A stretch of DNA of 64,000 nt from Minisyncoccota bacterium (GCA_041663185.1 JBAZQY010000001.1:117298-181297); one strand, 5' to 3'. Numbered from the stretch's first letter, positions 2,728 to 61,790 are shown. Numbers and translations are program-made. Notes: generated by a model not told the origin, from the sequence alone.

Positions 2728-3174
2728 TTAGGCGTTATCACAAACAACATCAGTGGTTGCAGTAATTTCCGTTCCGGGAGCAACAGTAGAAGTCCCAGCA
2801 AATCCAGTACTATCAACACAGAAATTACCTCCTACTGGCAATGTAATAGCCCATCCCCAAGCTGTTGGAGCAGTAAGTGCAGCTGTATTCTGCGCACAAG
2901 TCGATACAGTTCCACCACCATTAGTTGCAGCTGTAACTAAAGTACCTAAACCTCCATCAGCAGTACTAGTGCAAAGACCATCAAGATAAGTTCCTGCAGT
3001 AGTCATACCAAGTTCAGCTTGAACTCTTGCAGAACTAACAGTAGATTGAACAGCTGCTGCCTTACCCTTATTTCTTGCAGTATTCAAACTTGCCAAAACG
3101 ACTGATGCCAAAATACCAATGATTGCGATAACGACCAACAATTCAATTAACGTAAAACCTTTATTTTTTTGCAT
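2728..3174 (-). CDS. Type IV major pilin, paralogue 2
   Basis: MQKNKG|FTLIELLVVIAIIGILAS... The first ~30 residues are identical to paralogue 1, the C-terminal region is divergent, and the FCVDSTG motif and C-terminal Cys are conserved. Confidence 0.8.
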   Translation of the reverse strand: MQKNKGFTLIELLVVIAIIGILASVVLASLNTARNKGKAAAVQSTVSSARVQAELGMTTAGTYLDGLCTSTADGGLGTLVTAATNGGGTVSTCAQNTAALTAPTAWGWAITLPVGGNFCVDSTGFAGTSTVAPGTEITATTDVVCDNA

Positions 3175-3235
3175 AATATTTTCCGCTTTATGCGGGTCCG
3201 CACATGGCGGAAATTTTATTAATAATTTTTTAATA
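3175..3235 (-). promoter_or_regulatory. Conserved pilin 5'UTR, copy 2
   Basis: Duplicate of 2499..2560. A TATAAT-like -10 (gatataatg on the minus strand) lies about 80 nt upstream of the start codon. Confidence 0.45.
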
Positions 3236-3355
3236 AGAAACACGACCTTATTTTTAATAATACCATTATATCATAAAACTAACTTAAAAATACAATGCGA
3301 TGCGACCTGTGGATAAGTTTGAATCAGTAGCAAGTAGTAAGGAGGATTTAGAGAT

Positions 3356-4564
3356 TTATACTCCACCGGCGATATTGTAAATCGGCATTAAGATTGATGA
3401 TAATAAGATACCAACTCCAAGCCCCAAAATAACAATCATAACTGGTTCAATTAATCCGACAAGAGTATCGACGGCTTCGTTAACTTCCCGAGCATAAAAA
3501 CGCCCGAGAGTTTTTAGAATATTCCCCAGGGACCCCGTCTCCTCCCCCACTCTTATCATCCCTGGCATAATTGGAGGAACTTCTTTGTGTTTAGAAAAAG
3601 CATCCGACAAAGAACTACCGCCTTTGACGGCTTCAGAAACATCTTTTAATATTCCTTCAAAAACCCGATTGCCAACCACCGCACTCGTCAACTCAATCGA
3701 TCGAACAATCGGGATACCCGATGAAAGCATAGTGTCCATATTGTCCGAAATTCTTGAAAGATAAAGTTTGGTGTAAATACTTTTGAAAACTGGGGTGTTA
3801 ATTTTTAATCGGTCAAAATATAATCGTCCAGCTGGAGATTTGGAATAGTGAATAATATAAACAACAAAGATAACTACTGCAATTAAAATGAAAACTCCGT
3901 AACGGACAAAAAGGTCACTCAACGACATAATAAGTCGAGTGAAAAATGGTATTTCAGCACTTGATTCTCGAATAATAAGCGCTAGTTTTGGAATAATAAA
4001 GACAAACATCATACACATCACGAGGATGAAAACACCGACAACAAAGGCTGGGTAGATCAGAGCATTTTTAGTTTTCGAAGTAAGTTGATATTGACGATCG
4101 AGATAATCGGCCAAATAAGAAAATGTTTGGGTAAGTTTACCCGTCTCTTCTCCAGCCCGAATCATATTGACATAAAAATCAGAGAAAACTACTTTGTGCT
4201 TCGCTAAAGCTCCGGAAATCGAAACTCCTGATCGAATATCTTCTGCAACTTCATTCAAAACTGCCACCAAAGCTTGATTTTCACTATTCTCAGCGAGCAG
4301 AGTGAAAGCTTTCAGGGCTGAAACTTGTGATTCAAAGAGCGTCGACATTTGTCGTGACATGATGACGATGTCTTTCATTTTTATTTTTGATTGCCCAAAG
4401 AAGGAAATATTAAACATCCCCTTTTTGGCTTTTTCTTCATCAATCGATGAGATGAAAAATCCGCGACGCTGAAGAGCAACAATCGCCAAGTCTTTCGAAC
4501 TTGCATCAATTGTCCCAACTTTATTCTCACCAGTACTGGTGATGGCTTTGTAATTGAATAACAT
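3356..4564 (-). CDS. pilC: Type IV pilus inner-membrane platform protein (PilC/GspF family)
   Basis: 402 aa with a duplicated T2SS-F-like architecture and 3 TM segments. It is adjacent to the pilT/pilB ATPases. Confidence 0.8.
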   Translation of the reverse strand: MLFNYKAITSTGENKVGTIDASSKDLAIVALQRRGFFISSIDEEKAKKGMFNISFFGQSKIKMKDIVIMSRQMSTLFESQVSALKAFTLLAENSENQALVAVLNEVAEDIRSGVSISGALAKHKVVFSDFYVNMIRAGEETGKLTQTFSYLADYLDRQYQLTSKTKNALIYPAFVVGVFILVMCMMFVFIIPKLALIIRESSAEIPFFTRLIMSLSDLFVRYGVFILIAVVIFVVYIIHYSKSPAGRLYFDRLKINTPVFKSIYTKLYLSRISDNMDTMLSSGIPIVRSIELTSAVVGNRVFEGILKDVSEAVKGGSSLSDAFSKHKEVPPIMPGMIRVGEETGSLGNILKTLGRFYAREVNEAVDTLVGLIEPVMIVILGLGVGILLSSILMPIYNIAGGV

Positions 4565-36319: not shown

Positions 36320-37087
36320 TTAAAGTTGAGTTAAAATTTCCGCCTCTCCTTCAGTTATTAAAATTGTATGTTCAAAGTGTGCTGATCGCGAACCGTCAGC
36401 TGTTTTTATTGTATATCCATCAGAACCATTTACAATATTATCCTTGCCGATATTTAGCATTGGTTCAATCGCGACAACCATCCCTGGAATTAATTTTTGC
36501 CCCTTTCCTGCCTTTCCATAATTCGGAATATAAGGATCCTCGTGGACTGCTTTCCCGACTCCATGCCCTGCAAGCTCTCTTACTATCCCATAACGCCCAT
36601 GGACGAATGATTCTATTGCATGCCCTATATCACCCACGGTCGCTCCACCACGAGCCGCCCAGATACCGATTTCAAGCGCCTTTTTTGTGTCATCGATAAG
36701 AGCTTGGTCTTTTTTTGAAATTTTCCCAACAGGCACCGTGACAGCATGGTCAGTGAAAAGACCTTTGTGATTTATCCCAAGGTCTAAAGAAACAATATCT
36801 CCCTCTTTTAAGATTTTATTTTTACCCGGAACACAATGAACTATCTCATTGTTGACTGAAGTGCAAAGAGTTGCCGGATAGCCACTTACTGCTCCCTCTG
36901 GTTTATAATCCAAAAAAGCTGGAACATCTCCTCCGTCTTTTATAAGTTTATAAGCAAATTGATCAAGCTCGTAAGTAGAAATACCAGGCTTAACTTGTTT
37001 AACAGTTTCTGCCAAAACAAAAGCCAACCTCTTCCCTCCTTCACGAATTATCTCTATTTCTTCTAGTGTTTTGATAATGACTGACAT
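36320..37087 (-). CDS. map: Methionine aminopeptidase, type I
   Basis: Pita-bread fold metal ligands in conserved context (…DIVSLD…, …HGVG…, …EPM…). Confidence 0.85.
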   Translation of the reverse strand: MSVIIKTLEEIEIIREGGKRLAFVLAETVKQVKPGISTYELDQFAYKLIKDGGDVPAFLDYKPEGAVSGYPATLCTSVNNEIVHCVPGKNKILKEGDIVSLDLGINHKGLFTDHAVTVPVGKISKKDQALIDDTKKALEIGIWAARGGATVGDIGHAIESFVHGRYGIVRELAGHGVGKAVHEDPYIPNYGKAGKGQKLIPGMVVAIEPMLNIGKDNIVNGSDGYTIKTADGSRSAHFEHTILITEGEAEILTQL

Positions 37088-37125
37088 ATAAATTCTATAC
37101 TAGATGAATTTTGCTAAATAAGCAA

Positions 37126-38831
37126 TTAAAAATATTCCTTTTTATAACATTCTTTACAGTAAATAATAGGGGCTTCTTTTTGATGATAATTAGTTTTAAA
37201 AACATTTCTACATTTATTACATTTTCTTTCTATTAAAGACATCTGTTGCGCCCATCTTTTTATCTTATTTTCAATTCTACAAAAAGGACAACGACGTGGA
37301 AGTGGAAGATTGTGTTGTCTTAAAAATTGAAGTTCTTGATTTGTTATTTTGTATCCTCGAGGACAAGTTGCACATTTAATTGATTCATTTAATATATCAT
37401 CTTTTATGTCTCTGATATTATCAGGTAAATCAATAAAATTCATTGTTATTAAATGTTCGCTGATAGGAATGTCTGCCCAAGATAGTTCTTTTAATATAAC
37501 TTCTTTTTTGGATAAAGGATTAAATAAATAGGCAAAGGTATCGTTATAATCATGTGGAGAAAACTCCATTGGAAAAAATCACCGTATTTATATATTATCC
37601 CATTTTTATTTTCATATGGATTTCTTTCCATATCGAATATAATTTTTTTTCTAAGCTCATCAAAAGTTTTTGGGTCGTATTTTTTATTTAAAATATAATA
37701 TTCTTTATTTCGTATCCCTGAACAACCAAATAGAAACGCTCCCCCCATACAACTTTTTGAATATTCTATATGGTGACCATTGTGTATATCCTGACTAAAT
37801 CGTACATCAGAAACTTTGTTTCCAACTGTAATACATTCATATATTCTTTCTGCCCCTTCTCCCCAATCAATATAATCATAACTATCTTTAACACTCGGTG
37901 TTTTAATAAGCATCATATATTTACAATCTTCACAATACCCTGAGTCGTAACATTCTTTACAATTTTTAGAATAAAACACATAGTTGCCAGTACAATCTTT
38001 ATTAAACATATAGTCATAACATGGATTTGGAATCGAGTTCTTCCAAATTTCTTCTGCTTTAATTTTTATTTCTTGATATGTTTTGTAAGAGCCAAGGTCT
38101 ATACTTTTTATTTGTTCTTTATAATTTTCTTTGGTAAGTTGTTCATTAAAGAAAACATATTTCTTATTATATAAATTAGAAGATCCAAAACAATATTGTG
38201 AATTTTTTGCATCACGAATAAAAAAACAATCAAGTGATGTATGGACATTGCCCCTAGATCCGTGGACTCTGTTATTTCGAAATCCATTTAATCCATCATA
38301 GCATTGCTCACATTCCCAATAGACACTACAATCAAGAACTGATTTGTCTCGAGTTAGATAAAAACCGTGTTGACAATCTTCATCATAATCGGAATAGAAA
38401 ATTAAGTAACAATTCTTAGAATGATCACAATGATTAGTATATGGCGATAATTCTGATGTACTTTTAGTAACAGCAATTCCCCTAATAGGGACACGATGTA
38501 GATGCTCATTTAATTGTTCAAAAAATGAACGAGAGGGATTATAATCCATGGCATATTTTTCAGGATTCCATTTATCACTCCACCAACAATCAGAACAATA
38601 AATCGTATAAGGTGAATCGGGTGGATACATTGATATTTTTTCTTCTCCACACAAATCACATTTTCTCTTATATAAACGAAATCCTTTTAACCAAATTAAA
38701 CGTCTCTGTTTCCTACACTCCGGACAAAAAGTCGGCGGAGGAACTTTAATTTTCTCATAAAAAGAAAAATCATCAGGCTCGATTATAAAGTCATTTTTGC
38801 AGTTCTGACAAACCCTAGTTTCTTCTTTCAT
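37126..38831 (-). CDS. Cysteine-rich protein with N- and C-terminal CxxC...CPxCR zinc-ribbon-like modules, interrupted by a frameshift at an A6/T6 run (37573-37578)
   Basis: Track ORFs 37491..38831 and 37126..37569 overlap in different frames. Adding one T (T6 to T7) on the coding strand gives a continuous ~568-aa product (...KYGDFFPMEFSPHDY...). Both termini carry CxxC-(14-17)-CPxCR modules. Confidence 0.5.
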
Positions 38832-38873
38832 AATCTTAATTATACTAAATAATACTAAAATATATAATATCCT

Positions 38874-38912
38874 TTATAACCTGTTGTGACGATCGTCTGA
38901 ATAGGTTATAAT
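38874..38912. promoter_or_regulatory. 39-nt palindromic operator-like element, copy 1
   Basis: ttataacct-gttgt-GACGATCGTC-tgaat-aggttataat. The TATAAT at its 3' end lies 9 nt before the regulator ATG. It sits in the divergent intergenic region shared with the Cys-rich gene. Confidence 0.5.
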
Positions 38913-38921
38913 AAGCAGATT

Positions 38922-39404
38922 ATGAATATGATAAAAGAAACATTACACGCAATAAGCAATTACCCTGGTGGATATGGGGCAATATATGATTTAATCTATC
39001 CAAATGAAAGCAACCCAAAAGATAACAGCCAGGTGCTTAGGAACAGATTATCAAAATTGAAGAAAGGGGGGTTACTCTCTAACGAAAAAGGAATTTGGAA
39101 AATTACCCCAGAAGGAAAAATATTTTTGAAAAAAGAAAAATCAACATTAATTAAATTTACTAGTTTTAAAAATATAAAACTAAATCCACAAAAAACAATG
39201 CTGGTAATTTTTGATATCCCGGAGAAAAAAAGATTATATAGAAATTGGCTTCGTAATGAACTCGTTGGTTTTGGGTTTACTCTTATTCAGAAAAGCGTCT
39301 GGTTCGGTCCAACTCTTCCTAAGGAATTTATAACATATTTATCAGACCGTAAAATTCTTGAATATATAAAATTTTTCAAAGCCACTGAAAAAGATTTAAT
39401 ATAA
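38922..39404 (+). CDS. PaaX-like transcriptional regulator (winged helix N-terminus, Cas2-like PaaX_C C-terminus)
   Basis: N-terminus ...YPGGYGAIYDLIYP...LRNRLSKLKKGGLL...W.ITPEG... is wHTH-like. C-terminus LVIFDIPEKKRLYRNWLRNELVGFGFTLIQKSVWFGP matches the PaaX_C/Cas2-like motif (…GFG.L..SVW..P). Confidence 0.45.
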   Translation: MNMIKETLHAISNYPGGYGAIYDLIYPNESNPKDNSQVLRNRLSKLKKGGLLSNEKGIWKITPEGKIFLKKEKSTLIKFTSFKNIKLNPQKTMLVIFDIPEKKRLYRNWLRNELVGFGFTLIQKSVWFGPTLPKEFITYLSDRKILEYIKFFKATEKDLI

Positions 39405-39417
39405 TTCTTAAAAAACA

Positions 39418-39456
39418 TTATAACCTATTTAGACGATCGTCTAGTTTGGTTATAAT
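39418..39456. promoter_or_regulatory. 39-nt palindromic operator-like element, copy 2
   Basis: ttataacct-attta-GACGATCGTC-tagtt-tggttataat, with a perfect 14-bp core tagacgatcgtcta. It is a direct repeat of copy 1 at the convergent 3' ends of the regulator gene and pyrH. Confidence 0.5.
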
Positions 39457-39478
39457 GTATTTTATATTTAAATATTAA

Positions 39479-40165
39479 TTATTTAATTACTGTCCCAATA
39501 AAAGATTCTCCGTCGAGATAGGCCCTTAGATTGTCTATTTTTTTACCATTTAGGATTATAACTTCATAACCAAGTTTTTCGGCTTCATAGGCGGCAATTG
39601 GATCAAATGGGGCATTAATTCCTGGTTTCCAATCTTTTGGAAAAAGTAATCGGAAATCTACCCATGATATTTTATCGATTGATTTAGCATCGGGATTAAA
39701 TTTGGGGTCTTTGTCATAAACGAAATCAATATTGGAAAGATTTATAATTTTTGTTGCTCCGACACTTGTCGCCGAGCGAACTGCAGCCAAGTCACTACTA
39801 TTCCCTGGTCTCCACCCCCCTCCAACAATAATTGGTTTGTCAGTTGTAGGAATATTTTCTGGATCGAGTACAACTTTTTCGTAAGCTAAATCTTCAAAAC
39901 AAATTCTAACAAGTTCAGCATTAACTCTTGTGATCGAGATCCCAAGCCAATCAAGATCCTCAATTGAAGGGTCTGTGATTTTTTTTAATGAATCATTATA
40001 TTTACGACAAAGTTTTCCGCCTCCGGTGATAATTAAAAAGGTAAACCCACGAGAAACGTATTCTTTAATTGTTGTTACAAATAATTTCAAAAAGTCTGCA
40101 TCAACTTCATCTTGAACGATAAGCGAACCACCAAGAGAAATTATAATTTGTTTCTTTTTATCCAT
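39479..40165 (-). CDS. pyrH: Amino-acid-kinase-family UMP kinase (archaeal-type PyrH-like)
   Basis: IIISLGGS...IITGGG... and ...IIVGGGW.PG.SSD.AA... carbamate-kinase-fold motifs. 228 aa. Confidence 0.55.
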   Translation of the reverse strand: MDKKKQIIISLGGSLIVQDEVDADFLKLFVTTIKEYVSRGFTFLIITGGGKLCRKYNDSLKKITDPSIEDLDWLGISITRVNAELVRICFEDLAYEKVVLDPENIPTTDKPIIVGGGWRPGNSSDLAAVRSATSVGATKIINLSNIDFVYDKDPKFNPDAKSIDKISWVDFRLLFPKDWKPGINAPFDPIAAYEAEKLGYEVIILNGKKIDNLRAYLDGESFIGTVIK

Positions 40166-40170
40166 ATATT

Positions 40171-40773
40171 TTATAATCCAAGGGAATTAATAATTTCTTT
40201 ATGAACATCTTCCTTGCTTTGATCGCCATTTATGGTGTAAATTGTATAATTTTCTTTTCCTTTAAAATAATTCATCGATGGAATCACATTATTAACATAT
40301 TCGTCGAAACGCTTGCTAATCCCATCATCCGTATCATCTGCTCTTCCTCGCAGTTTCATTCTTTTCACCGCTTCTTCTTTGCTTAATTCAATATACACAA
40401 TTTTTATATCTTCACGATTATAAAATTCCATCATATGAGCAAAAGATTCCGATTGCTCAATTGTACGAGGAAAACCATCCGCGATAAGACACGTTTCTTC
40501 TTTCATGTTCGTCGTTAAAATATTTGTGAATAAACTGATTGTTAAAAAATCAGGCTGAAGAAAACCTTTTTCTAAACTTGTTTTTACTTTTGATCCCGTA
40601 TAACTTCCACTTTCAATTAATTTTCTATATTCTACTCCTGTCGAAGTGTATAAAATATCATTAGCAATATTTTTTTCTTTTAAGTATTGTTGTAAAAATT
40701 CTACTTGAGTCCCTTTCCCTGACCCAACTATTCCAAAAAACATAAATGTACACGGTTTTTTTTGCATATTCAT
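40171..40773 (-). CDS. adk: Adenylate kinase
   Basis: P-loop GIVGSGKGTQ, ...DGFPRT.EQ... and the RxDD LID motifs (RGRADDTDD). It is downstream of secY. Confidence 0.75.
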   Translation of the reverse strand: MNMQKKPCTFMFFGIVGSGKGTQVEFLQQYLKEKNIANDILYTSTGVEYRKLIESGSYTGSKVKTSLEKGFLQPDFLTISLFTNILTTNMKEETCLIADGFPRTIEQSESFAHMMEFYNREDIKIVYIELSKEEAVKRMKLRGRADDTDDGISKRFDEYVNNVIPSMNYFKGKENYTIYTINGDQSKEDVHKEIINSLGL

Positions 40774-40826
40774 GTATTATACTAAAAACTTGACCATTAA
40801 AAAAGACCCATGATTGTGGGTCTTTT

Positions 40827-42098
40827 TTAATATTCTCTCATTGATAATTGCGCCTCTGTTTTCTTAATTAAATCAAGAACAACTGAAACAACAATCAAGA
40901 GAGCTGTTCCGCCAATAGCAAAAGCACTTATGCCAGTGACTGCTCGAATAATAAGTGGAAGCACAGCAATGACACCAAGAAAGACTGCTCCCATTGTGGT
41001 TGTGCGAATTAGAATTTTAGAAATATATTCTTTGGTAGCTTGACCTGGACGAATACCTGGAACAAAAGCTCCATTCTTCTGCAGGTTTGTAGATAATTGT
41101 TCTGGATCAAAAGTAACAGCTGTATAAAAGTAGGTAAATAGGAAAACAAATATGAAATAGAAAATGGCATACAACCAAGTATTCTGCACAAACCAAAGCA
41201 TTGCTCGAGAAATTGCCAAAAGTGTTGGGCTTTCCATTCCCGCAAAGAAATTTCCTATCAACTGAGGGAAAAGCAAAATAGACAGAGCAAAAATTATTGG
41301 AATAACTCCCGCTTGATTGATACGAATTGGTAGATATGTCTGTGTTCCTCCGGCCACATGATCACCCCTGACTTGTTTAGCATAAGTCACTGGCACTGGA
41401 CGCTCAGCTTCTGAAACAACCACAACTCCTGCCACGATTAATAAGCCAACAGCTAAGAATAGGATGTAAACTGGCAAATTGGACATATCAAAAGTAAAGA
41501 AAAATCTGGAAATCTCGGTCGGAATACTGGCGACAATCCCAGCAAAAATTATGAGTGAGACACCATTACCAATTCCAAACTCAGAAACAAGTTCACCAAT
41601 CCACATAATGAGCATTGAGCCCGCCACGATAACTGAAAGGTTAGTGAATGTTCCAAATAGTGATGCATCAATCATGATTCCTTGTTTGCGTAGTAAAACT
41701 AATAACGCCAAACCTTGAACAATCGCAAGTGGAATAGTAAGCATTCTACTAAATTGAGTAAATTTCTTGCGTCCAATCTCACCATCTTCTTGATACATAG
41801 CCTTCAAACGAGGAGACATGATAGTCAAAAGTTGCATGATAATCGAAGATGTAATGTATGGACCAACACCAAGCATGATAATTGATAAAGTCGAAAGTCC
41901 ACCACCAGAGAAAATATTTAAAACCCCAACAAATTGATTATTGGTTATAAAATTTTGAAGTTTGATAGCATCAACTCCTGGAATTGGAATAGCGGAAAGA
42001 AGTCGGAAAACAACAAGAGCTCCGAGCACAAATAAAACACGATTTCTCAATGTTTTATCTGTAAATATTGCTTTTATTTTATTGAAAACAATTTCCAT
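40827..42098 (-). CDS. secY: Preprotein translocase subunit SecY
   Basis: 423 aa, 10 TM helices, and the conserved SecY plug/TM2-TM7 regions. Confidence 0.9.
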   Translation of the reverse strand: MEIVFNKIKAIFTDKTLRNRVLFVLGALVVFRLLSAIPIPGVDAIKLQNFITNNQFVGVLNIFSGGGLSTLSIIMLGVGPYITSSIIMQLLTIMSPRLKAMYQEDGEIGRKKFTQFSRMLTIPLAIVQGLALLVLLRKQGIMIDASLFGTFTNLSVIVAGSMLIMWIGELVSEFGIGNGVSLIIFAGIVASIPTEISRFFFTFDMSNLPVYILFLAVGLLIVAGVVVVSEAERPVPVTYAKQVRGDHVAGGTQTYLPIRINQAGVIPIIFALSILLFPQLIGNFFAGMESPTLLAISRAMLWFVQNTWLYAIFYFIFVFLFTYFYTAVTFDPEQLSTNLQKNGAFVPGIRPGQATKEYISKILIRTTTMGAVFLGVIAVLPLIIRAVTGISAFAIGGTALLIVVSVVLDLIKKTEAQLSMREY

Positions 42099-42100
42099 AA

Positions 42101-42529
42101 TTATTTTATAGTTCCTCCAGCTTTTTCAATCTTGAGGCGAGCACTAGTTGAAACTTTGCAACCTGTAATTGTGAGTTTCTTACTAATTTCTCCCGTTCCA
42201 AGAATTTTAACATTTGGAAGTGACCCCCTGACACGACGAACAAGATTTTTGGTAAATAGTATTTCTGGATTAATGACTGTCTCCGCGTCAAAAACATTCA
42301 AAGCTCCAACATTGACTGGTGAAAACTTAACGGCAAAAGATTTAAAGCGATACCCTCTTTGTTTAGGTAACTTTTTAATTATATCACGCATTTGTGGACG
42401 ACGCTTATTTCCGGCACGAGCAGTCTGCCCCTTTCCTCCACGACCAGATGTTTTACCTCGAGTTCCTCCACGACCAACTTGTCTGGATTTTTTATTTGGA
42501 TGTTCTCTTTTTAGTGTGTGTAATTGCAT
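42101..42529 (-). CDS. rplO: 50S ribosomal protein L15
   Basis: GRGGTRGKTSGRGGKG Gly/Arg-rich L15 N-terminus. It directly follows rpsE with no rpmD (L30) between them. Confidence 0.85.
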   Translation of the reverse strand: MQLHTLKREHPNKKSRQVGRGGTRGKTSGRGGKGQTARAGNKRRPQMRDIIKKLPKQRGYRFKSFAVKFSPVNVGALNVFDAETVINPEILFTKNLVRRVRGSLPNVKILGTGEISKKLTITGCKVSTSARLKIEKAGGTIK

Positions 42530-60863: not shown

Positions 60864-61031
60864 ATTGTTCAGTTTTTTGTTTTTTTGTGAATAGGTTAAT
60901 TTATATTTATCCCGACAAACCCTTATTTCTCAAGATAAATATAAATTAACCCGAACAAAGTACTTACCCATATTATCCTACTTTACTAGAGGTTTTGTCA
61001 AGGAGTTATCCCCATTTTATCCCCACCCACA

Positions 61032-61058
61032 ATATAGCGAAGTCCGACTTCACTATAT
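61032..61058. repeat. REP-like palindrome immediately 3' of the RAYT-like gene
   Basis: atatagcGAAGTC-c-GACTTCactatat. Confidence 0.6.
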
Positions 61059-61790
61059 CTATTCCATATCTAAAATAACCTCTTGTGGTAAATTTTCATT
61101 ATTTTTTAAATTAAATGATTCAATCCAATTTAAAATTTCCTTTTTCTGTTTTTCTTCACCCCCTAATCTATGTAATAAAAAATCTTTTTTAATTATCGAT
61201 GGAAAATTTTTTTGACCAACATAGTCCAAATAACTGCTCCATCTGTATTTATTCAAAAAATCAATAGCTTTTTCGAGATCATTAATTTTTCCCTCTCTCC
61301 ACTCTTTAAATTTATAATCAAGCGGATTTAAGTGGATATATATCGGTAAATACATCAAATGTGAATCTTTTTTTAGATTGACTGATTTAAATTTCCCCTG
61401 AAAAAGTGCCCCAGTTCTTTCATATTTTTTATTAAAATAATTTGTATATCCAGTTCCTAATTTCCGCATGAATTCTGTAATTCCATTTTCTGTCTTTTGT
61501 CTAACCATCAAATGAAAATGATTATCCATCAAACAATAAGCCAAAATCTCCACCAATACTTCCCTAGGTTTTCTCGTAATATTAGGAAGTCCGACTTCCT
61601 TAAGTTTATTATTTTTTGACTTGAGGTATAAAGCTAAGTTAATTGTTGGGTTCTTATCATTAAACTCAAATAAATCGTGAACGAAGCGAAATCTATCATC
61701 GTCATCCATGAAAATATTGCGTTTATCTACACCTCTATTATAAATATGATAGATTTCTCCAAAAACTAAATGTGTTTTTCTTAATGACAT
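61059..61790 (-). mobile_element. RAYT-like Y1/HUH transposase-like protein (REP-associated tyrosine transposase family)
   Basis: YHIYNRG, DDDDRFRF, HUH motif YCLMDNHFHLMV, then ...GTGYTNYFNKKYERTGALFQGKFKS...IYIHLNP, matching the family signature. An internal REP-like palindrome lies at 61582..61603. Confidence 0.6.

Follow-up and report, generated by a model that had tools for sequence, protein, structure and literature searches.

Within the 64-kb stretch of DNA analysed here, referred to as the window, a gene for a small putative regulator is enclosed by two copies of a composite palindrome, one upstream (U) and one downstream (D). The neighbours of this unit are a Cys-rich gene, a UMP-kinase-like gene, adk, secY and map. 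The elements of the locus are:

37126..38831, minus strand: divergent Cys-rich gene, split into ORFs of 446 and 147 aa
38874..38912, no strand: U copy of the composite palindrome, with arms TTATAACC/GGTTATAA, N6 spacers and core GACGATCGTC
38907..38912, plus strand: TATAAT, part of the right U arm and 9 nt ahead of the regulator ATG; probable -10 box
38922..39404, plus strand: ORF of the 160-aa mini-PaaX-like protein, between the two copies
39418..39456, no strand: D copy of the same composite palindrome, centred 32 nt past the regulator stop
39479-40165, minus strand: UMP-kinase-like gene, convergent with the regulator and followed by adk, secY and L15

An earlier note on this DNA had reported both palindromes at these positions, and the pattern TTATAACC-N6-GACGATCGTC-N6-GGTTATAAT is indeed present in exactly two copies in the 64 kb. 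The U copy (38874-38912) reads TTATAACC TGTTGT GACGATCGTC TGAATA GGTTATAAT and the D copy (39418-39456) reads TTATAACC TATTTA GACGATCGTC TAGTTT GGTTATAAT; the spacers, given as N5 in that note, are N6 in both. In a pattern search of the window that allowed up to three mismatches, with 100 shuffles as a control, these two sites were the only matches, the shuffles gave none and the chance expectation is zero. Looser arm-only and half-site searches did not bring up a further credible site in the 64 kb, so that the regulon may consist of this locus alone. The genome-wide search for the 39-mer that the note had suggested was run over the 64-kb window, where it returned the two copies only. A metagenome-wide scan with the reduced pattern AACC-N6-GACGATCGTC-N6-GGTT gave 40 matches, located on contigs with a GC content of 0.41-0.71 save for one at 0.38. 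None of them lies beside a homolog of the regulator, and they were discarded as chance matches or unrelated coding sequence.

Each site is about 38-40 bp long and the distance between U and D is ~545 bp. The U copy has its centre between 38892 and 38893; the Cys-rich gene (ATG at 38831, minus strand) and the regulator (ATG at 38922) start on either side of it and diverge. On the D side, the regulator and the UMP-kinase-like gene converge, and the copy lies between their 3' ends. Other parts of the earlier description stand as well: the TATAAT at 38907-38912 precedes the regulator start by 9 nt, the 160-aa ORF (38922-39404) is bracketed by the two copies, and the divergent Cys-rich gene carries a frame change (ORFs 37491-38831 and 37126-37569).

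The 160-aa protein had been proposed to join a winged-helix (wHTH) N-terminus to a PaaX_C domain with a Cas2-like fold. Its C-terminal half is Cas2-like, but the domain is PaaX_M rather than PaaX_C (PF20803, residues 94-157; 51.1 bits against a cut-off of 24, 1.5e-13 in Pfam). PaaX_M is the central, Cas2-like domain of PaaX, and a precomputed match to it is present in nearly all homologs. PaaX_C gave no Pfam match in the 160-aa protein, which ends at residue 160. The comparison with PaaX, Cas2 and wHTH profiles, put forward earlier as a check of the assignment, had a mixed outcome. PaaX_M is matched well above its cut-off, but the Cas2 and winged-helix Pfam matches are sub-threshold, the former by a narrow margin (PF09827, 23.4 against 23.8). 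The Cas2 equivalog TIGR01573 is likewise borderline at 0.2 below its cut-off (24.3 against 24.5 bits), and the PaaX equivalog TIGR02277 reaches 14.3 bits against 264.55, with positions 33-151 of its 279 matched. Judged by these profiles, the protein is neither a true PaaX nor a Cas2, since both equivalog cut-offs are missed and PaaX_C is absent.

In the AlphaFold2 model of the protein (pLDDT 79.5), three helices and a β-hairpin wing at residues 3-71 make up the wHTH (about residues 1-71). A linker of low confidence (about residues 72-92) connects it to the Cas2-like domain (residues 93-160), which has a βαββαβ topology and carries the motif FDIPEKKRLYRNWLR...QKSVW. The N-terminal wHTH is backed by this predicted fold and weakly by the sequence. 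Foldseek retrieved E. coli PaaX (8a39) as the best solved structure, followed by type II-A Cas2 chains and MarR-like wHTH regulators. The Cas2 matches (5zyf, 5xvo, 8pk1, 6jhz) have probabilities of 0.98-1.00, target TM-scores of 0.43-0.61 and identities of 23-29%. Since a direct hhalign comparison with E. coli PaaX was not significant (1.4% probability), the relation to that protein rests on the Pfam PaaX_M match and the fold match.

The protein belongs to a large family. Its homologs form 118 close clusters, mostly of unnamed Paceibacteria/Parcubacteria proteins; the family as a whole occupies more than 532 genomic loci and forms 1845 representative clusters at 50% identity (E<=1e-10), nearly all of them with proteins of 150-230 aa. 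The motif FDIPE..R..R.WLR...Q.SVW is invariant across this mini-PaaX family, and E. coli PaaX apparently has CFEAQ in the place of FDIPE according to a rough alignment of seven sequences. No relatives were found on viral contigs.

The bracketing of the gene by twin palindromes is a trait of the family. Eighty loci with relatives at 28-76% identity were sampled, which together with the window makes 81, and the 220 nt before the start and after the stop of each gene were searched for a pair of similar, self-complementary 44-mers. This strict test was passed by 52 of the 81 loci, the window included, and about ten further loci show the bracket by eye. As a control, 196 other genes from the same loci were subjected to the test; a single one passed, and it is a paralog of the family. 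The site centres lie at a median of 36.5 nt before the start (U) and 35 nt after the stop (D). Counted from the centre, positions 1-4 and 11-17 are complementary in 87-103 of the 104 copies, and the spacer positions 5-10 in 64-82. The site is composite, with a core and outer arms that are paired and spacers that are paired less. Its core is usually CGATCG, with the lineage variants CGGCCG, CGACCG, CTATAG-type, CCATGG and TGATCA. The arms differ widely between lineages; within each locus U and D share both arms and core. Paralogs within one MAG can carry different sites (L001/L002, L027/L029; sampled loci are numbered with an L), and arms and cores also differ between units that share a syntenic slot.

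Both copies appear equally constrained, with 856 complementary pairs in the D copies versus 847 in the U copies, and D is kept in 28 of the 37 loci with a convergent downstream gene. The genes that neighbour the unit are unrelated housekeeping genes across the family (ClpB, LepA, TrxB, DnaB and RecR-like proteins were noticed by eye rather than in a family scan). No partner gene is conserved across the whole family, and neighbour orientation is about 50/50 on both sides. With such unrelated neighbours and a D copy that persists in convergent loci, the bracket belongs to the regulator gene itself and is not specific to the Cys-rich gene. Extra copies of the unit's own site are limited to 3 of the 52 loci; in L033 a third copy is found beyond the next gene. 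The spacing between U and D bears no significant relation to helical phase at 10.0 or 10.5 bp, and a signal at 11.0 bp was set aside because the loci are non-independent and this was one of three periods tried.

Perfect 40-nt palindromes, spacers included, are present in many loci, and at 42-49 positions U and D differ while each copy is still self-complementary. Sorting of the U/D differences gave 42 positions that are paired in both copies but different, 23 with the same asymmetry and 12 with mirrored asymmetry. Perfect palindromes can arise by template-switch correction of quasi-palindromes or by crossover at their centres. The pairing pattern could reflect either process, as it fits both alike and the 42/23/12 sorting does not discriminate between them.

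Some loci hold more than one family gene or site. Second family paralogs lie within a few kb of the first in L008 (7427-7993, minus strand), L028 (735-1103) and L068 (4644-5096, minus strand), and the second paralog of L008 has its own flanking palindrome pair. Three tandem family palindromes, centred at 2456, 2545 and 2643 and thus about 90-100 nt apart, are present in L051 upstream of an apparent RelE-type toxin-antitoxin pair (2729-3378) that directly precedes the PaaX-like cassette. From these tandem copies it appears that the site may also control neighbouring genes in some genomes.

The link between protein and site was examined by co-variation. The arms in the window read TATAAC-N26-GTTATA. 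The operator of E. coli PaaX consists of two inverted repeats, TGATTC-N27-GAATCA, spanning roughly 39 bp (PMC9493321), and the window arms match it in geometry, as inverted repeats of 6-8 bp about 26 bp apart. Between the window and the syntenic locus L121 (68% identity), all four half-sites have changed from TATAACC to TGTAACC, and the spacers have drifted. Mutual information between protein alignment columns and half-site bases was calculated for about 50 sequences, several of them with uncertain start codons. The top pair is residue 104 (FDIPEKK[R]) and core position 4, with z = 10.8: R occurs with A in 20 of 27 sequences, K with G in 16 of 21 and Q/S/A with C in all four. On a neighbour-joining tree, residue 104 and core base 4 change coincidently 7 times versus 2.65 expected (hypergeometric p about 0.005), and 5 of the 7 changes follow the R-A/K-G pairing, being R→K with A→G or K→R with G→A. 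In addition, arm positions 11-15 co-vary with residues 35, 41 and 42, which lie in helix 3, expected to be the recognition helix. These co-variation tests are suggestive and are confounded by shared ancestry; the palindromes behave as putative cognate sites of the 160-aa protein.

In E. coli Cas2, basic residues just after strand 1 contact the prespacer duplex, and residue 104 lies in the equivalent region. Taken together, co-variation and operator geometry would fit a Cas2-like dimer on the core with tethered wHTHs on the arms. If residue 104 reads the core, the substitution R104K is predicted to move the preference from ACGATCGT to GCGATCGC, and R104Q to move it towards CCGATCGG.

The position of the U copy points to a regulatory role. 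The U palindrome resembles a sigma-70 promoter (TTGTGA-17-TATAAT, 38884-38912), as does the D palindrome (TTTAGA-17-TATAAT). Five loci (the window, L001, L121, L122 and L132) have TATAAT or TACAAT as the end of the right U arm, 6-9 nt before the ATG, and no Shine-Dalgarno was seen in any of them. With a -10 box that is also an operator arm, located at this short distance from the ATG and without a Shine-Dalgarno, the transcript would be leaderless or nearly so. From the same overlap we infer that binding should auto-repress. Applied to the whole family, a reading of the arms as -35 or -10 boxes did not yield a consistent result and was abandoned; the -10 reading is limited to the sub-branch of the window.

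The Cys-rich gene is probably a second target of the U site in this sub-branch. It is the immediate divergent neighbour in 7 of the 9 close relatives with DNA (window, L001, L002, L121, L122/L123, L131, L132); in L129 a Cys-rich gene is found within 2 kb and in L130 none is present. The Cys-rich homologs have 561-613 aa and are intact where the whole gene is on the contig (L001, L121, L124, L131). In L124, the closest locus by its UMP kinase (88% identity), the UMP kinase gene is followed by a 65-nt gap and the Cys-rich gene, and the cassette is absent. This gap holds a single palindrome of the family type, AATATAAACAAATCATACGA|TCGTATAAAATGTTTATATT, with its centre 40 nt upstream of the ATG of the Cys-rich gene; this supports control of the gene by the site. 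The solo site is identical at 40 of 48 positions to the D site of the cassette in L122, a locus of the same sample, and the L122 cassette itself faces a Cys-rich paralog. The unit had originally been read as a compact autoregulated switch on the Cys-rich gene, with no role assigned to the D copy. The adjacency in most close relatives and the solo site of L124 agree with this, but the bracket is family-wide and not Cys-rich-specific. The terms switch and autoregulated would both follow from the position of the sites.

The frame change in the Cys-rich gene of the window, at about 37560-37578, is a 1-nt shift at the run GATTTTTTCCAATGG (window 37520-37620, minus strand). An assembly error, a pseudogene or a slippery site could each account for it. 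Related Paceibacteria have the order secY-adk-UMP kinase-map (window 36320-42529 compared with L125, L126 and L127), and in L125, L126 and L127 the UMP kinase gene is directly followed by map. In some lineages, the UMP-kinase-like gene and map are separated by an inserted Cys-rich gene, which is accompanied by the regulator cassette or stands without it.

Among the relatives, the cassette is also found in both orientations at one position. In the slot between genes of cluster 9-5 (glutaredoxin-like and TrxB-like, by reading) and cluster 4-2, four loci have it co-directional (L037, L044, L053, L060) and four have it inverted (L048, L055, L061, L067). The window, L121 and L132 have it in one orientation. 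The P0013 locus, judged from gene calls only, has the cassette turned around relative to the window, with a UMP-kinase-like gene on one side and a 556-aa ORF on the other. Near-identical palindromes are direct and inverted repeats at once, so recombination between them can invert or delete the enclosed gene. Being both palindromic and alike, the two sites would thus be recombination substrates, which would explain inverted and absent cassettes. Owing to the symmetry of the sites, the regulatory layout would survive an inversion.

In this study, we propose that the unit is a regulator gene with two operator sites, which is the best-supported reading of the sequence and in our judgement a fairly probable one. 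The 160-aa protein would be a truncated PaaX-type DNA-binding protein that dimerises via its Cas2-like domain. The Cas2-like dimer would be placed on the CGATCG core of each palindrome, while two wHTHs on flexible linkers would reach the outer arms 11-17 bp from the centre. Binding at U, which contains the regulator's own -10 box and abuts the promoter region of the Cys-rich gene, would result in self-repression together with modulation of the Cys-rich gene. The D site would serve as a conserved second operator that cooperates with U, e.g., by a loop of ~545 bp around the gene. Alternatively, protein bound to D may form a roadblock that insulates the unit from the convergent secY-adk-UMP-kinase operon; looping and roadblock are both conjectural roles. 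The alike palindromic sites would also act as recombination substrates, by which the cassette is inverted, or lost with one site left.

Among the points against this reading are two that concern the sites themselves. Recognition by a symmetric dimer does not require perfectly self-complementary spacers, and the D copy of the window lies between convergent 3' ends, where there is no promoter to control. The latter would favour the view that only U is functional as an operator and that D is a by-product, such as a remnant of a duplication or inversion. Nevertheless, the self-complementarity of D equals that of U, the copy is kept in most convergent arrangements, and it follows the changes of U in arms and core across deep divergence, which leaves this view very unlikely. 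Slightly less so, yet still improbable, is that the palindromes function as nucleic-acid hairpins: as 5' and 3' stem-loops that stabilise or insulate the transcript, as bidirectional terminators, or as a long 5'-3' RNA duplex. As single strands (DNA), both copies fold better than shuffles, with -6 to -10 kcal/mol and z of -4 to -6, and the frequent perfect 40-nt palindromes and the 42-49 compensatory differences between copies would likewise be expected of stems. Against this, mismatches of the G.T and A.C type are balanced (79 versus 77), so no transcribed strand is favoured; the spacer pairs least, and the core, the would-be loop, is the most conserved part. The stems are AT-rich without a T-run, and 0 terminator-like sites are present in 38700-39600, so the motif does not resemble the terminator that the earlier note had considered as the opposing explanation. 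Moreover, no Rfam match was obtained, the -10 box in the right arm would place the U copy of the sub-branch outside the mRNA, and protein residues co-vary with both core and arm bases.

A further alternative, which we regard as unlikely though worth considering, is a mobile or invertible cassette in which the palindromes are recombination sites or a duplicated target, the wHTH provides targeting and the Cas2-like domain, whose Asp is retained, contributes to cleavage or bridging of DNA. The empty state with one palindrome (L124) and the forward and inverted states around the same flanking genes are what such a cassette would produce. The otherwise unrelated contexts, the presence of paralogs in several MAGs and the symmetric position of the gene between its sites (medians of 36.5 nt on the U side and 35 nt on the D side) point in the same direction, as does the FDIPE...QxSVW Cas2 signature, which is invariant in the family and, by the rough 7-sequence alignment, apparently not kept in E. 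coli PaaX. On the other hand, no recombinase, Cas1 or transposase lies beside the unit in the neighbourhoods examined, and the viral contigs yielded no relatives. One syntenic position has been kept while the protein diverged to 66-76% identity, and both copies are constrained and change along with the protein, which would not be expected of a passively duplicated target. The solo site of L124 is of the L122 specificity type and not of the window's, which fits an operator acting in trans, and inversion or deletion between palindromic repeats of 40 bp needs ordinary recombination only. In a variant of this idea, an autonomous element would have a Cas2-like dimer that reads a palindromic repeat of ~38 bp, and integration would duplicate the repeat as in CRISPR spacer integration. 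We consider this variant a long shot; if true, the family would represent either a living relative of the ancestor from which Cas2 recognition of repeats arose or a mobile or invertible cassette of a new, minimal kind.

The reading as a regulator with two operators can be set beside several known systems. The closest is PaaX, a repressor of E. coli and Pseudomonas that responds to phenylacetyl-CoA. It shares the order of an N-terminal winged helix followed by PaaX_M, and the E. coli protein (8a39) ranks first among PDB structures by fold. PaaX acts as a repressor on its own promoter, by occlusion, and as in the window its operator spans roughly 39 bp and pairs two short inverted repeats at a distance of about 26-27 bp (PMC9493321). 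In contrast to PaaX, the 160-aa protein is half-size (PaaX has 316 aa) and lacks PaaX_C. No paa genes lie near the window gene, whose neighbours are housekeeping and Cys-rich genes, and FDIPE is kept where E. coli PaaX appears to have CFEAQ in the rough 7-sequence alignment. The site itself also differs: between the arms lies an additional conserved core, CGATCG, which co-varies with one residue in the Cas2-like domain. A second operator follows the gene.

With type II-A Cas2, the protein has in common the fold and the pattern FD[IM]P...R..YR...L...GF...Q.SV[WY], at the TM-scores (0.43-0.61) and identities (23-29%) given above. Unlike Cas2, it remains just below the Cas2 cut-offs and is fused to a wHTH, and no cas-like neighbours are present at the window locus or in the 80 loci. 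A direct-repeat scan of the 64 kb (22-nt minimum, 12-nt seed, not tuned to CRISPR) showed no CRISPR-like array. As for the repeats, there are two copies here, about 545 bp apart, with the gene between them.

Repressor genes located between their own operators are known from lambda CI with OR and OL and from phage 186 CI with its flanking sites, where looping takes place. By analogy, autoregulation at the promoter-proximal operator would be shared with lambda CI; the protein folds are unrelated, and here there is one site per side instead of triplets. The unit is, furthermore, a chromosomal element of a CPR bacterium with no phage context, in which looping is conjectural. In pdif modules and other cassettes with short palindromic recombination sites at their ends, too, a gene lies between two similar palindromes and can be present in either orientation, or absent with one site left. 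The unit differs from these in that no Xer-type or other recombinase is implicated, by sites of 38-40 bp that co-vary with the enclosed protein and by its long-stable synteny. REP/RAYT systems resemble it in that a single gene is flanked by its own lineage-specific palindromes, but RAYTs are HUH/Y1 transposases with dispersed REPs, whereas only two copies exist here in 64 kb.

A published description of such a mini-PaaX unit with twin operators was not found in the searchable literature. What would be new, in its best-supported form, is a PaaX-like regulator with a PaaX-type operator that is nevertheless truncated and Cas2-like, with a sequence-read core and a gene enclosed by two operators. 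To our knowledge, almost no transcription factor in Paceibacteria/Parcubacteria has a known target. If our reading is true, it would provide a function and a cognate DNA site for a large unannotated family of these bacteria (about 1,850 clusters at E<=1e-10). The pairing of residue 104 with core base 4 would also suggest that the middle of a palindrome can be read in a sequence-specific manner by a Cas2-type domain, which bears on how Cas2 came to act on palindromic CRISPR repeats. The lineage-specific arms and cores would amount to dozens of natural protein/site pairs and thus to candidate orthogonal repressors. In addition, the unit would offer a concrete case of palindromic operator pairs that drive the inversion or loss of the gene that they enclose.

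Several other repeats were observed in the window and in L122. An ORF of 243 aa (61059-61790, minus strand) with an HUH-like NHFHLMV motif looks IS200/RAYT-type. The palindrome GGAAGTCCGACTTCC is located just past its stop (61031-61063) and again inside the ORF (61578-61610), and L122 has two tandem copies of this motif near 3802. Further repeat pairs of the window, at 2419-2560/3095-3236, 45748-45922/46530-46701 and 43536-43587/44126-44177, are 85-92% identical and spaced by 590-780 nt; they could reflect tandem paralogs or lie around small genes. In L122 (1300-1360), the D palindrome is immediately followed by a separate repeated element, CACTAGGGAAATCCCTAGTGATTTCCCTAGTGATATGACTAGGGA, which consists of overlapping palindromes.
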